DNA of 64,000 nt from Candidatus Latescibacterota bacterium (GTDB lineage Bacteria > Latescibacterota > UBA2968 > GCA-2709665): the NCBI GenBank assembly GCA_965226795.1, contig CBDDDZ010000005.1, positions 448,001 through 512,000 on the forward strand, in the 5' to 3' direction. Shown here in pieces: positions 15,001-21,000 of this stretch (positions are counted from its first letter, which is position 1; every line of letters starts with the position of its first letter). Made by a program: the position numbers.

Positions 15001-18000
15001 TGTCGTTACTACAAATAGCACCTGATGAAGTCCTGCCGAGTTTACGATTCTGACTCGGACAGGGATGCTCTGTGAACCGGGTGCATAGCCGGGAGGCGAG
15101 ACGAGGTGGATGGTCGATGAAGATTCGTCCGGACCTATTCCGATGTCAGCGTTGAAATAGGGATGGACGGCCAGGAAGCCGGCGGCGCAGGCAGATAGCT
15201 GGCCCTGGTTTCCTGCACGGTAGGACATTATGTATTTTTCGTCTCTGAAGTCGTTATTCAAGTCGAACGCATGTCCGAGTTCATGGGCCACCGTTCTCCA
15301 GGAAAAGGGACTCGGAACCAGCACCGTGGAGAAAAATAGATCACCTTCTCGCGACTTTTTAGTTACTGCACCCGCTTCGCTTCTACCAAGGTAACGTGCT
15401 GCTTTGACGTTAAGGTCAAGGACGATGAGTTCGATCGGAGATCTACCTACGACGTGCCAGCTCTCCCTTTGTGGGCCACTCGACTCGATATAGTGTGCAT
15501 CTGCGTGTTCCCCATCCACACGGTGAATAAGTGGCTCACCCTGGGGATCTGTCTCGAAGCGAAAGGTTCACCTTCCATGGCCGTGTCTCTGCATTTCTTC
15601 CGCGAAGAAGGCCTGAATCTGGAGTATTGCAACCACCATCGAATCGACAACTTCCTGGCGAAAATGCCGGTCCTTGGGCCGGAAGTAGATCATCCGAACG
15701 GTGCGAGGATCCTCCGCCGTCTGAGCCGTCGGCTTTACGGCGGCGAAGGTGAGGTCTGTGTCTTGCCGGGAATGGACGACCCGGCAGCAGTTCGTATCCT
15801 CCGACTCCAGAGACCAGAGTGGACGCATATCCCGCCGGTATCGAAGCAAGGGACAGGCCGGCCACCGCAAGCGAGCATAACCTGCGGACCAGCGTCTGAT
15901 CGTTCATCTCTTAGCTCGCGATCGCAACCGCTGGTTGCGAACCCTTCCGTTTCGGGGCCTCATTTGACCCTTCGCCGACCCTTCGACAGGCTCAGGGAGC
16001 GGCTCAGGGTTCGGGGCTCAATAATGTTCGTTGAGCTTGTCGAACGGCCTGCGAAGAGAAACCTGTATGGAGCGTCGGTGGGTCAACGAGCAAGCCGCAG
16101 GATCGTCTCTGCCGCCGTCGAGGATGACCATGGCGCGTCAGTCCGGCCCCCTCGTCTCGCGGGACTTCAGGCCGCGATCTCCCTGGCGATGGCGATACAC
16201 TTGGCGGCAAAGGTGTCGTAGGCGGCTCGGAACTCGGCGCTGGTTTTCTGCACGGATCCGAAGTCCGGCCAGTCGCCGGGTTCCATGCCCCGGGTCTGCC
16301 AGCCGGCCACGTCGATGCCGACGACGTTCTGCAGGAAGTCTTTAAGAGACGGCGTCAGGTCGTATCCGCGGCAGAAATCAGGAAGTTCGCGCAGGCGCTG
16401 GTCCACGCCGGGTTCGTAGGTATCCAGCACGGCGTCCCTGAAGTCTTCGAGGTTAAAGCCGTCCGCTTCGGAGGCCGTCTGGACGGCCCGTGCGTGGTTC
16501 GGAAACTCGGTGTTGCACATGTTGGACGCGCCCAGCGTGTGGAAGGTGTCTTCGGGAATGCGTTTGGAGGCCGGAAGTACATCCATGGAATCCAGGATCC
16601 ATCGCGCCTGGGCGTCCGTAACGCCGTAGGTTGCCCGAAGATGAGCGACCCACTTGGGCCGGTTCCCGGGGCTGAAGAAAACCCAGTAAACGCGGCGGGC
16701 GACCAGGGTGCCCGCTTTTTTAAGGTCTTCTTCCAGAAGCTGGATGGCGTCCGCCGATTGCCCGGCGGCTTCGGCAGCCTCCAGGACGATGGGGTGGTCC
16801 AGGGTTTTGAGGTACTTATAGTTGCAGACGTCCCGCGCTTTATCGGTAAAGGATCCGCTGGCCGCGTCCCGGGCGTCCAGATCGGCGGCCAGTGCGTCAA
16901 GGAGTTCACTCGCTTTGCCTTCTCCGGCTCTTTCCGCCGCGGAGAGAAAGATCTTCTCGGCTTCAACCTCCCGCAGGTGGCTTACAAACCGGCCGCCCAT
17001 GTTGGTTTCGTAGGTGCGTACAACCTGCCCGCCCGCCTTCGCCGCGTGCGCCTTGCCCTCGAACGCGTCCAGTATGAGCTGAACTTCCTGGGCCACGGTG
17101 TAGACCACGGTGTTGTTGGAGCCAATGGCATTGCTGTTGAGAGTCGTTGTGATTTTTCGGGCGGCCTCGTGGCTGGCGGCGACTTTGAAGACGATGTTCG
17201 GGTTGACCCGGCCGGAACGATCGCCCAGGCCCAGCAGGCGGTCGTATCCTTCAAGGTAGTCGGCGGCCAACCTGTATGCATTTCGCGCATCCTCGATGCT
17301 GGCTTCGGCCTGGTCGGCGATGTTGGGATTGAGCTGGAAACTGACCATATAGTCTTTGAGGTCCGTATGTACCGCGAGCGGCCGGAAAATGGAAAGATTG
17401 GGCCAGAGGGCGATGAGCGTGGCCGCCATGGCGATCTCGTCGGCGTGGGCCTCGGGGTCTTGCTTCCAGCTATCGTGTTTGTCGACTTCGCCTTTGAGTT
17501 GCTCGGCCAGTGTGCCGTCTTCGTCAAAGGCCTTGGCCGCCAGTACGGGGTTGGTGGACACCTGGCAGAACCCGTAGTGGCGAAGGTATTCCAGGCCACG
17601 CGCGAAGTCGTTGCCGAATTTACAGTAATCTTCTCCGATCATTTTCCAGTAGACGCCGCTGCGCATCTGCCGTTTGAGCAGTGTCAGAAAAGAACGGCCC
17701 GGCCTTGCCTGGTTCAGGTCCGATTCGATGCGTTCGGCAAGAAGGCCGGAGAGGCTGTCGCTCAGGTTGACTGACTTCATGTCGGCCAGGAAATCAGCCA
17801 CGACGCCTGCCATTACGGCCCCCTCGAGATCATCGATCGCAGCCAGGACCTGCTCGAGTGCGGAGTCGGCTTCGTCCGCGCTGTATCCGACGATTTCGGC
17901 GTCTCTCCCCACGAAGTTCATGCCGAGCCGGATCAGGGTGCTGCAAACCGCGGCGGCGGGGCAATCGTTATTCTGGATAGCGGACAGGAGTTCGTCTGCG

Positions 18001-21000
18001 CGGGCGGTCAGCGTGCCGGGCTGCGGGTCGATAAGTATCTGGTCCGCCGCGGCGAGCGTCTGCCCGTTTCCGATCGCTTCCACTGCTGCGGAGATGTCGA
18101 TTGCCATTCTGGGGCCTCCCTTTGCATCGCACTAGACGTGAAACGGCGCTGTATACTACCGCCGCCGGGCGGTCTGTTGTCCGCCGTATGCCGGATAAAC
18201 ATCATTCAATGCCAAGGACGTCCCGCATGGTGAACAGTCCGGGGGGCGCGTTTACTACGTAGCGGATGGCCTGAAGGACTCCCACGCCGTAGGAATCCCG
18301 GCTCTGTGCACGGTGGACAAGCTGGAAGATTTCGCCCGTACCGCCAAAGATGACCGTATGTTCTCCCGCCAGATCTCCCGCGCGGATGGCGTGGATGCCG
18401 ATTTCATCCCTGGTGCGGGCACCCGCTTCTCCGTGTCGGCCAAAAAGAGCTACGTCCTCCAGTCTTCGACCCAGGCCCGTTGCCGCGGCCTTCGCCAGCG
18501 CCAGCGCTGTGCCGCTGGGCGCGTCGGTCTTGAAATGGTGGTGTGCCTCGACGATTTCAACGTCGTAACCGTTACCCATCATGCGCGCGGCGTCTTCGAC
18601 CAGTTTGGTGAGTACGGTTACGCCAATGCTGAAGCTGGGCGCAAAGACGCAGGCGACGTCCTTAAGGGCCTTTTGAAATTCGGCAAGCTGGCGGGCCGAC
18701 ATGCCCGTGGTGCCGACCACCATCGGCCTGCCCGCTTCGCCGGCGATTCGCGCGGCCTGAAGCGTACCGTCCGGGGGCGCGGTGAAGGCGACGACCACGT
18801 CGGCGTTATCAATGACGGATTCCAGGTTGTCGACAACATGAAGATCGGTGCGCGTGGCCCCCACAATCTCGCCAATATCCCGCCCGATGGCCGGATTGCC
18901 AGGCGCTTCCACGCCGCCGGCGATTTTCAGATCGTCGGTTTCCATAGCCAGGTTGACGATGCGGCCGCACATCTTGCCCGCGATGCCGCAGATAACAAGG
19001 TTTGTCATTGTGATTCTCCGGGGACTGACACCACTGCCGGGAGAGAAGGCGTATCGGTCGAGAATTACCGGTACCCCGGCCGGGTCAGGCCAATTCACCT
19101 CGTTTAACGCCGTGCCCGCGATTCTTCGACACCTAGGCGCCGAGCCGTTCCTCGAGGGCGTTGAGTTCGGTTACCAATTCCCCCGGCAGGCGTTCTCCAA
19201 AGCCGGCGTAGAACTCGCGGATATCGTGCAGTTCGGCGCGCCAGTCTTCCACGTTCACTGAAAGCAGTTCCTCAACGTCACCGTCCGGGATGTCCAGGCC
19301 GATGAGGTCCAGGGCTTCCGGCGTGGGTACGTAGCCAATCGGGGTTTCAACAGCGTCGGCTGTACCGGCTATACGTTCGCAGATCCATTTGAGCACACGG
19401 CTGTTCTCGCCGAAGCCCGGCCAGAGCCAGTTGCCGTTTGCGTCTTTACGGAACCAGTTGACGTAGAAGATTCTGGGGGCGTTGTCGCCCAGCCGGACGC
19501 CCATTTCGAACCAGTGTCTGAAATAGTCGCCCATATGATAGCCGCAGAAGGGCAGCATCGCAAAGGGGTCTCGTCGCAGTTTGCCCACGGCGCCGGCCGC
19601 CGCGGCGGTGGTTTCGGAGGCCATGATGGAACCCAGGAAGACGCCGTGTTGCCAGTTCAGCGCTTCGAAGGCCAGAGGAACGACTGATGAGCGACGGCCG
19701 CCAAAAATGAAAGCGGACATGGGGACGCCATCCGGATTTTCCCACTCGGGGTCGATTACGGGGCACTGCACGGCCGGAGCTGTGTAACGGGCATTGGGAT
19801 TGGAGGCTTTGTCTTCCGACCCTGGCGTCCAGGAGCGCCCGAGCCAATCCTCCAGTCGGGGCGGCGGATCGTCCGTCATTTCTTCCCACCAGACGTCGCC
19901 CTCGGGGGTGAGTGCCGTGTTGGTGAAGATGCTGTTTTTCTCCAGGGCGGCCATGGCGTGACCATTGGATTTCAGGCTGGTGCCTGGCGCGACGCCGAAG
20001 AATCCGGCTTCGGGGTTGATCGCCCGGAGCCTGCCGTCGGGCCCATGGCGCATCCAGGCAATATCGTCGCCAACGCAACGGGCGTCCCATCCCGGGATCG
20101 TAGGCTGCAACATGGCCAGATTCGTCTTACCGCACGCGGACGGAAAGGCGGCGCCGATGTAATGTTTTCTTTTTTCCGGTGAGGTGAGGCCCAGGATGAG
20201 CATGTGCTCGGCCATCCAGCCTTCGTCACGCGCCATGGACGACGCGATGCGGAGGGCGAAACATTTCTTGCCAAGGAGGGCGTTACCGCCGTACCCCGAG
20301 CCGTAGGACCAGATGGAGGGCTCTTCGGGAAAGTGTACGATATATTTTCGATCCGCGTCACACGGCCAGGAGACGTCTTTCTGTCCGGGCTCGAGTGGGG
20401 CGCCCACCGAATGCATGCAGGGCAGGAAGTCTCCGTCACCCAGGGCGTCCAGCACGCGGTCGCCCGTTCGGGCCATGATGTGCATGCTGCAGACCACGTA
20501 AGGCGAGTCTGTAATTTCGACGCCGATCTTGGACGTAGGCGAACCGATGGGGCCCATGGAGAACGGGATTACGTACATGGTCCGTCCGCGCATCGAACCG
20601 GCGAACAGGTCCTTGATGTTGCGTTTCATTTCTATGGGTTCGCGCCAGTTGTTGGTAGGTCCAACGTCGTCTTCGTCCGTTGTACATATAAAAGTGCGGT
20701 CTTCCACGCGGGCGACGTCGCCCGCATCCGACCGGGCAAGAAAGCTGTTGGGGCGCCGGTCCGGATCCAGCCGGGTGAAAGTTCCCGCCCGGCATAGCAG
20801 ATCGGCAAGCTGATCGTACTCTTCCCGGGAACCGTTGCACCAGTAAATGTCTTCCGGTTGGCAGAGGTTCGCGGCTTCATCTACCCAGTTCAACAGTTTA
20901 CGGTTCTTGGTTCTTGTCGTTCCCATTCGACTCCTTCCAGGATTCACGGATTAGTCTACGTACGCCAGATTTTCCAGAATTGAGGCGTCCATGACACGGC

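Follow-up and report, generated by a model that had tools for sequence, protein, structure and literature searches.

The gene and its locus

The window, by which the whole stretch of 64,000 nucleotides analysed is meant, carries on its minus strand (16167..18107) an open reading frame that starts with ATG, encodes 646 amino acids and has a codon composition of GC3 0.76 versus GC2 0.43. The frame itself, Pfam, homologues, a predicted model and its structural alignment identify it as a long-form member of the transaldolase family with a Gln/Met active site. The Pfam score for TAL_FSA (PF00923) is 41.7 bits against a cut-off of 27, and the NCBIfam transaldolase scores fall well short of their cut-offs (29.8 vs 367, 24.5 vs 233.75 and 18.3 vs 344). 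A genome-wide survey's note had singled out an outsized transaldolase-fold gene at this place, an observation that is confirmed as a whole: the homologue search returns the same 743 homologues, the best 120 being 61-99% identical, and the ordinary small transaldolase said to coexist is indeed encoded in the window genome and has the canonical Glu and Phe in place. The gene is also widespread in the order, as claimed, though the count of 47 of 53 genomes becomes 40 of 46 with a full-length gene; in the phylum, 42 of 121 sampled genomes carry it at full length. Matches in the ESM Atlas were confined to uncharacterised clusters of the same family, and literature searches found nothing on it. Short-form members occur in the cultured species Christensenella tenuis (locus L171) and Clostridium sediminicola (locus L164).

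Upstream on the same strand lie dapB (18202-19008), a GTP-PEP carboxykinase gene (19133-20947) and dapA (20951-21988), and this block (18202..21988) is a conserved neighbour across the window's order. These genes are probably not functional partners of the transaldolase-family gene; a functional link to dapA and dapB was considered and judged to be probable hitch-hiking, dapB being the genome's sole copy and the linkage being limited to one order. A scan for promoters and terminators at the locus gave chance-level results. Contigs from RNA libraries span the gene in 4/4 runs with flat depth across the region, a pattern that may reflect DNA origin, and they are therefore given no weight as evidence of expression.

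Fold and active site

As modelled (pLDDT 96.1), the protein is a type-III transaldolase barrel plus a 150-aa helical N-domain. The all-helical N-terminal domain (residues 1-150, 17658..18107, minus strand) folds alone with a pLDDT of 90.2, and the (beta/alpha)8 barrel with its insertions follows (residues 151-638, 16194..17657, minus strand). The largest helical insertion (about residues 390-455, ends approximate; 16743..16940, minus strand) is delimited by DSSP helices and, in the profile alignment, by a gap against the short relatives, which lack it; N-domain and large insertion had both been described before and are both seen in the model. The barrel aligns with the N. gonorrhoeae transaldolase over 332 residues (Z 34.4, rmsd 2.6). 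Among the Foldseek matches listed at E<=1e-3, all 37 are transaldolase-family chains, in agreement with the survey, with a best E of 1.7e-9 and, against the Neisseria and Corynebacterium enzymes, TM by target of 0.71-0.76. The same note's statement that a profile search of the PDB gives E of at least 0.13 does not hold for a broader profile, which reaches PDB transaldolases at E 2.8e-5. For the N-domain, Foldseek returned no match at E<=1e-3, and the best Z, 8.6, is within the generic helical range; a new fold does not follow from this. The domain may have an oligomer or scaffold role.

With the type-III transaldolases of N. gonorrhoeae (3clm, 7bbx, 7oey) and C. glutamicum (3r5e) the protein shares the barrel and the helices that flank it (Z 33-34, rmsd 2.5-2.6, 331-339 residues) as well as the Asp, Asn, Lys, Thr and phosphate-site residues, yet it is only 17-19% identical to them, has Gln for Glu and Met for Phe, and is enlarged by the 150-aa N-domain and by insertions of about 155 residues. 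E. coli FsaA (1l6w) resembles it in the Gln at the place of Glu96, the Schiff-base lysine and the fold (Z 17.3), whereas the window protein has Met for Tyr131, is three times larger and is structurally far nearer the long transaldolases.

Residue equivalences that the survey had drawn by motif analogy are now borne out by profile and structural alignments. Profile alignment pairs Gln258 (17334..17336) with TalB Glu96 and FSA Gln59, and Lys308 (17184..17186) with the Schiff-base lysine, TalB Lys132; by alignment via the short relatives, Met370 corresponds to TalB Phe178 (FSA Tyr131) and Arg373 to Arg181 (together 16989..17000), Ser514 and Arg516 of Ser514-Lys515-Arg516 (16560..16568) to the phosphate-site residues Ser226 and Arg228, and Thr533 to Thr243, all codons being on the minus strand. 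Asp167 (17607..17609, minus strand) is equated with TalB Asp17 from the point where the structural alignment begins: T. acidophilum residue 1 falls on model residue 162 and Asp6 on 167, a register that presumes five gap-free residues. One MAFFT run placed Asp167 at TalB Ile21; the structural register is preferred.

Conservation was scored in 120 close homologues, 103 distant long-form members and 78 short members. Gln258, Lys308, Glu367, Met370, Arg373 and Ser184-Pro187 are present in 120/120 close homologues and Asp167 in 119/120. Gln258 persists in 103/103 distant and 78/78 short members, and Met at 370 in 102/103 and 78/78; Lys308, Asp167, Asn186 and Thr333 (the positions of the TalB Schiff-base Lys on beta4, Asp17, Asn35 and Thr156) are kept in 103/103 distant members, as is each of the phosphate-site residues Arg373, Ser514 and Arg516. 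Of the invariant set proposed earlier, Gln258, Lys308 and the STNP motif thus stand, Asp167 has its one exception, and Glu367 is invariant in close relatives alone. The proposal that Glu367 might be the acid-base residue fails on the 103 distant loci (Glu 44, Asp 33, Met 13, Val 5, Ile 5) and on the short forms, which have Arg or Leu there; the position aligns to TalB Ile175. Tyr366 (Phe in 50/78 short members) and Glu534 (Ile or Val in 67/78) are invariant in the long form and stay candidates for that form only, Asp167 being the sole acid retained in both. In the Neisseria NOS redox-switch transaldolase, a Lys8-Cys38 pair forms the switch, and K8A and C38S variants of that enzyme are among the Foldseek entries. 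Cys181 aligns to Cys38 but is Cys in only 7/103 distant members, and no conserved Lys was found at 155-158 in the 120 close homologues; such a switch was rejected.

The barrel, the Schiff-base Lys and the Asp/Asn/Thr residues place the 646-aa protein in the transaldolase/FSA superfamily. It departs from classical transaldolases at Glu96, at Phe178 and in its NCBIfam score while keeping their phosphate site (Arg181/Ser226/Arg228), and it has the Gln59 of FSA without the Tyr131. Glu96 is the acid-base residue of classical transaldolase, and TalB without it is a poor enzyme. E96Q variants are named in PDB titles among the structural matches.

Sugar-acid genes around the family

Neighbours were counted in 107 long-form loci outside the window's order and in 80 short-form loci; related carriers among them do not count as independent, and many of the genomes are incomplete MAGs. 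The gene uxaE lies near the long transaldolase gene in 33 of the 107 (about one is expected by chance) and is the immediate next gene in 18; also recurrent are iolO (28), a GyaR-type hydroxypyruvate/glyoxylate reductase (23), one TIM-barrel orthologue (20), iolM (18), iolB and iolN (11 each) and uronate isomerases (11, namely 2 UxaC and 9 of a divergent type). Members linked to uxaE are present in all three main branches of the family, those of Terriglobia being 61-62% identical to the window protein, and the family's gene neighbours span bacteria and archaea. Glycerate kinase occurs in 6/107 long-form and 4/80 short-form loci.

The Thermotoga-type route, as described in PMC12632266 and PMC6353982, runs through IolG-IolM-IolN-IolO and UxaE, then UxuB-UxuA-KdgK-KdgA. 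Its upper-pathway genes are the recurring neighbours of the long gene, whereas the lower reductase, dehydratase and KDPG genes are absent from the uxaE/iolO clusters, and the long transaldolase, the hydroxyacid reductase and the TIM-barrel protein stand in their place. UxuA had no match in 28 of the 33 uxaE-linked carriers, and three small genomes combine iolB, iolD and iolA with the long gene but lack IolC, the best match there being 94.8 bits against a cut-off of 300. Counting against a role in this context, 46/107 distant and 64/80 short-form loci have no marker gene, UxaE without UxuA is also seen in genomes that lack the long gene (families f9, f10 and f13), and in the window's own order the gene sits downstream of dapB without sugar-acid neighbours.

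The window genome does encode a BH0493-type uronate isomerase (E 1.2e-120), which Pfam missed; the negative Pfam search for uxaC is therefore misleading. This isomerase is found in 37/42 carriers in the phylum, but also in 26/79 non-carriers, 3 of them within the same order, and a D-2-hydroxyacid dehydrogenase gene adjoins it in 6/6 loci of the genus. The TIM-barrel orthologue occurs in 40/42 carriers versus 17/79 non-carriers. A tartronate-semialdehyde reductase above cut-off and an MOFRL glycerate kinase are likewise encoded in the window genome, where Pfam-type uxaC, iolB/kduI, hyi, garK and dhaK were not found; uxaE was found neither there nor in any of the 42 carriers of the phylum sample. 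No fructuronate reductase of either type is above cut-off in the window genome, where 39 SDR-family matches could mask one. Its tagaturonate reductase above cut-off, its altronate-dehydratase-like gene and a UxuA barely above cut-off (210.9 vs 199.55) mean that standard routes may partly exist.

It is quite unlikely that the protein is an ordinary enzyme of central metabolism, a sugar-phosphate transaldolase or F6P aldolase whose active site has been re-wired. That would suit the phosphate site and the Asp/Asn/Thr/Lys that it keeps, the housekeeping locus in the window, the transketolase genes adjoining 4 short-form genes and FBPase genes adjoining 6 long-form genes, and the scarcity of a small transaldolase above cut-off (6/50 distant carriers, some match in 20); it would leave the 33 uxaE and 28 iolO neighbours unexplained, in a genome that already has a canonical transaldolase, for a protein scoring 29.8 against 367 in NCBIfam.

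A putative keto-uronate transaldolase

The gene context thus favours the survey's suggestion of a different aldol transfer and points to keto-uronates, the reaction being deduced: cleavage of a keto-uronate of any kind is quite probable. Fold, residue equivalences, conservation, neighbours and co-occurrence were computed here; substrate, acceptor and catalytic roles are inferred from them. D-fructuronate is fructose-6-phosphate with a C6 carboxylate replacing the phosphate, and I consider it, at somewhat less than even odds, the non-phosphorylated donor in the reaction D-fructuronate + G3P -> F6P + tartronate semialdehyde. Lys308 would form an imine at C2 of D-fructuronate, Asp167 would do the acid-base work with a water positioned by Gln258 and Thr333, and cleavage of C3-C4 would let tartronate semialdehyde leave. 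With no Tyr to protonate it, the bound dihydroxyacetone unit would be transferred to glyceraldehyde-3-phosphate, held by Arg373, Ser514 and Arg516, to give fructose-6-phosphate. The C3 acid may become glycerate through the candidate TIM-barrel isomerase and the D-2-hydroxyacid reductase, or through tartronate-semialdehyde reductase, and then phosphoglycerate through glycerate kinase. Where the gene lies in iolD-iolB-iolA clusters, the enzyme would take the 5-deoxy analogue as donor and yield malonate semialdehyde. Given the poor activity of TalB without Glu96, the catalytic scheme remains a proposal.

Release of free dihydroxyacetone with tartronate semialdehyde from D-fructuronate, acceptor-free as in FSA, is unlikely. 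Gln258 is the FSA residue, FGGY kinases are adjacent or near in 4/107 loci and DHA kinase is present in 12/50 carriers, but Met occupies the Tyr131 place in nearly all long and all short members, and a Phe-to-Tyr change at this place converts TalB into an aldolase, as reported in PMC3962226. Transfer is favoured over release by the fully conserved phosphate site and by the absence of DHA kinase from the window genome and from 38/50 other carriers.

It is similarly doubtful that the donor is another keto-aldonate, be it D-tagaturonate, 5-keto-L- or 5-keto-D-gluconate or a phosphorylated keto-uronate, though subfamilies may differ. The product of BH0493 is D-tagaturonate, according to a title cited in PMC4017328; in several clades iolO is present but uxaE is not, gluconate 5-dehydrogenase-like SDRs lie beside short-form genes, and PfkB and FGGY kinases are found in some loci. 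No kinase is conserved across clusters, however, the direct adjacency of uxaE in 18 loci would be logical if tagaturonate had first to be turned into fructuronate, and the 3S,4R specificity of transaldolase and FSA given in PMC3962226 fits fructuronate and not tagaturonate.

Least likely is a protein that does not cleave in vivo, that is a Schiff-base epimerase (retro-aldol and re-aldol with no release) or a protein that binds sugar acids or serves as a scaffold. This would suit the absence of both known acid-base residues and the large additional helical domains, for which no role is known. Against it, the catalytic residues Lys and Asp are invariant, the adjoining UxaE and IolO already perform epimerisations, and the clusters repeatedly contain C3-consuming enzymes (reductase, glycerate kinase, malonate-semialdehyde dehydrogenase).

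The functional analogue of the proposed reaction is SftT (BmSF-TAL, 8bc2), a sulfofructose transaldolase which, as described in PMC7491151, cleaves a C6-anion analogue of F6P, passes the glycerone unit to G3P or E4P, and is 41.7% identical to the T. acidophilum transaldolase. SftT has a small-type subunit (about 220 aa, Z 18.8) and a sulfoquinovose context, whereas the 646-aa window protein matches type III (Z 34.4) and its family has a uronate or inositol context; no sulfoquinovose genes were found among the annotated neighbours, though no search aimed at them was made.

To sum up, I propose, with a probability of roughly 0.45, that the family belongs to an undescribed hexuronate/inositol route, hosted by uncultured bacteria and many archaea, in which a keto-uronate transaldolase, turning D-fructuronate (or its 5-deoxy analogue) and G3P into F6P and a C3 semialdehyde acid, would replace UxuB-UxuA-KdgK-KdgA or IolC-IolJ. 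Its active site would be a third solution, with neither Glu96 nor Tyr131, in which Asp167 by itself or the carboxylate of the substrate may do the work. Whether an enzyme acts as transaldolase or as aldolase is usually put down to its acid-base residue, Glu96 or Tyr131, and a natural family with neither residue, present in hundreds of genomes, offers a direct test of that rule. If the context is read correctly, the pathway gap after UxaE/IolO would be closed in Thermoproteota, Bathyarchaeia, Deltaproteobacteria and Latescibacterota, and the sulfofructose transaldolase route would have its equivalent for uronates; this reading predicts specific reactions with obtainable sugar acids and gives the unnamed TIM-barrel family a candidate role.

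The long-form gene and its active site

The window carries, at 16167-18107 on the minus strand, an ORF for a 646-aa protein which matches the Pfam family TAL_FSA (41.7 bits) and falls far under the cut-off of the NCBIfam transaldolase models. Its homologues number 743, the best 120 being 61-99% identical to it; an unindexed search added further full-length relatives at 31-61% identity and shorter ones of 355-590 aa. Among the best 80 of about 295 matches per listing, the closest named loci of this long-form gene are Latescibacterota, the more distant ones Poribacteria, Acidobacteriota, Armatimonadetes, Aerophobetes, Chloroflexota, Deltaproteobacteria, Bathyarchaeia, Thermoprotei and Nitrososphaeria. 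The full-length gene is found in 42/121 genomes of the phylum and in 40/46 of the window's order. Downstream lie a short repeated element (15961-16015; 55 matches in the genome), at which loose contig ends pile up, a WD40 beta-propeller protein (693 aa) with a 123-aa ORF (13438-15907, minus), both missing at this place in relatives, and an M20 amidohydrolase gene (12103-13350, minus). The latter, a single ORF of about 414 aa in relatives, is here seemingly two or three (13018-13350, 12746-13030, 12103-12864), possibly through frameshifts.

In the predicted model (pLDDT 96.1), residues 151-638 align best with the Neisseria gonorrhoeae transaldolase (Z 34.4, rmsd 2.6, 332 residues), followed by TalB-type enzymes (Z about 29) and by small transaldolases and fructose-6-phosphate aldolase, FSA (Z 17-19); the protein is therefore a type-III transaldolase barrel, into which about 155 residues are inserted. 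Residues 1-150 are modelled as a helical domain that folds alone, with no clear match among solved structures (best Z 8.6).

Residue equivalences were derived from profile alignments and alignment ranges. Set straight against TalB, a weak alignment (probability 30%) pairs Gln258 with Glu96 and Lys308 with Lys132. The profile of the short form, which lacks the largest helical insertion, matches TalB at 94.6% and the long form at 100%, and through it Met370 corresponds to Phe178, Arg373 to Arg181, Ser514/Arg516 to Ser226/Arg228 and Thr533 to Thr243. A joint long/short alignment is concordant, Asp167 excepted, which the structural alignment range puts at Asp6 of the Thermoplasma acidophilum enzyme and Asp17 of TalB. 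Across 103 distant long-form loci Asp167, Gln258, Lys308, Arg373, Ser514, Lys515, Arg516 and Glu534 are invariant, Met370 is kept in 102 and Cys181 occurs in 7; Glu367, which the genome-wide survey's note had held invariant, is kept in 44. All 78 short-form proteins have the Gln, the Lys, the Met and the Arg181 equivalent, the places of Tyr366 and Glu534 being variable, and Asp167 is the sole conserved acid in 41 sampled rows of both forms. The acid-base residue is Glu96 in transaldolase and Tyr131 in FSA. The protein is a member of the transaldolase/FSA superfamily and neither a classical transaldolase nor FSA; a non-cleaving protein is improbable. A canonical small transaldolase does coexist in the window genome, as the same note had stated.

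Gene neighbours outside the window's order

Neighbours were counted within 6-8 kb of the long-form gene at 107 loci (77 from one homologue listing, the best 80 of about 295, and 30 others), leaving out Latescibacterota, one short fragment and seven duplicate genomes. The gene uxaE is near in 33, against about 1 expected by chance, and adjoins in 18; an unnamed 500-aa neighbour proved to be UxaE, as predicted beforehand. Members linked to uxaE fall in each of the tree's three main branches, the window's included (read without support values, kin not being independent), and UxuA is absent from 28/33 of these carriers. Also near are iolO (28), a GyaR-type reductase (23), the orthologue of an unnamed xylose-isomerase-like TIM-barrel protein (20), iolM-like genes (18), iolG (12), iolB (11), iolN (11), a divergent uronate isomerase (9) and UxaC (2), with at least one of uxaE, divergent isomerase, iolO, iolM, iolN and TIM protein in 61/107; glycerate 2-kinase is near in 6 loci of one clade. 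Three small genomes with the long-form gene all have IolA and all have IolD (in-locus in two), two have iolB, and none has IolC. This pattern recurs in a minority of 80 short-form loci (glycerate kinase with reductase 4, uxaE 2, iolB 5), 64 being without any such neighbour.

The divergent isomerase, an amidohydrolase closest to solved structure 4i6v (E 2e-39), occurs at L222:10171-11454, at 8 other archaeal loci and at L086, and adjoins the long-form gene in Ignisphaera-type archaea. In one Deltaproteobacteria MAG (L096:8001-10176) the long-form gene is two overlapping ORFs in an otherwise intact uxaE-uxaC cluster. Members of one subclade flanked by an F420-dependent LLM oxidoreductase and class 1 FBPase (L059-L062, L064, L080), and those following inositol-1-phosphate synthase (L054, L055, L057), may have other substrates. 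At L116 a short-form gene precedes transketolase; judged from ORF starts only, their surroundings resemble a biosynthetic cluster that includes genes for an aminotransferase and a radical SAM protein. A third subfamily of about 400 aa has the same Gln and Met (L259:6083-7324, L260:7015-8229, L273-L280) and occurs in 8/11 genomes of one family, all with UxaE elsewhere. Two giant proteins also contain a transaldolase-like Gln/Met domain: P0193 (2953 aa), where it is fused to phosphoglucomutase, and P0221 (4369 aa), where its fusion partners are D-2-hydroxyacid dehydrogenase and PfkB domains.

Proposed transfer from D-fructuronate

PMC12632266 gives D-tagaturonate as the IolO product, and PMC6353982 has UxaE connecting D-tagaturonate with D-fructuronate and UxaC converting glucuronate to fructuronate. 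I propose, with a probability of roughly 0.45, that the long-form protein catalyses transfer from D-fructuronate, whose C3/C4 configuration would be that required by the family (3S,4R in PMC3962226). Cleavage would yield tartronate semialdehyde and leave the dihydroxyacetone unit bound; direct reduction of the semialdehyde would, by Fischer-projection reasoning, give L-glycerate, and this would account for the repeated presence of a candidate isomerase and a D-specific reductase next to the gene. The TIM-barrel family, which travels with both forms (window genome, contig C5:906349-907260, minus; L090:7347-8261), is a candidate tartronate-semialdehyde/hydroxypyruvate isomerase. From the 5-deoxy analogue, which is the IolB product, cleavage would yield malonate semialdehyde, on which IolA acts; some other keto-aldonate as donor is unlikely.

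The dihydroxyacetone unit would be passed to G3P rather than released, a choice favoured by the missing Tyr, the intact phosphate site and the missing DHA kinase, absent from the window genome and 38/50 carriers. PMC3962226 describes the phosphate site as two Arg and one Ser, and F178Y as converting transaldolase to aldolase. An aldolase, which would release the unit, is unlikely here. No paper was found on a fructuronate or uronate transaldolase, on a fructuronate aldolase or on fructuronate, transaldolase and tartronate semialdehyde together, in a search of main texts with few subscription journals among them.

Uronate genes in the window's own clade

In the window's clade the long-form gene follows dapA-(pckG)-dapB, uxaE is present in 0/42 carriers of the phylum sample and Pfam UxaC in 2/42, which made the initial case against the uronate reading. 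A role in central metabolism is unlikely. The divergent-isomerase profile located a BH0493-type uronate isomerase in the window genome (contig C2:512510-513787, minus; E 1.2e-120), on which Pfam has no match at 1e-5; another is listed at L261:8511-9788. BH0493 acts on glucuronate too. A title cited in PMC4017328 names galacturonate for it. The isomerase is present in 37/42 carriers vs 26/79 non-carriers, 13 of these 26 being only 32-36% identical, and in the same family two well-assembled genomes have neither it nor the long-form gene; a D-2-hydroxyacid dehydrogenase adjoins it in 6/6 genus loci. The TIM orthologue is present in 40/42 carriers vs 17/79 non-carriers.

The window genome also has a tartronate-semialdehyde reductase over cut-off and a MOFRL glycerate kinase. 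Its only mannitol-dehydrogenase-family gene scores as tagaturonate reductase, none of its SDRs reaches the cut-off of PRK08277 (SDR-type fructuronate reductase), and 20/20 carriers of genus g4 have no mannitol-dehydrogenase-family gene. Against the uronate reading stand a borderline UxuA and a UxaA-like gene in the window genome, and the fact that genomes without the long-form gene can have UxaE without UxuA. The window genome has about 10 divergent UxuA-like paralogues, and a genome of its class may have up to 28; those tested mostly fall under the UxuA cut-off. Uronate entry in this order would escape Pfam-based reconstructions.
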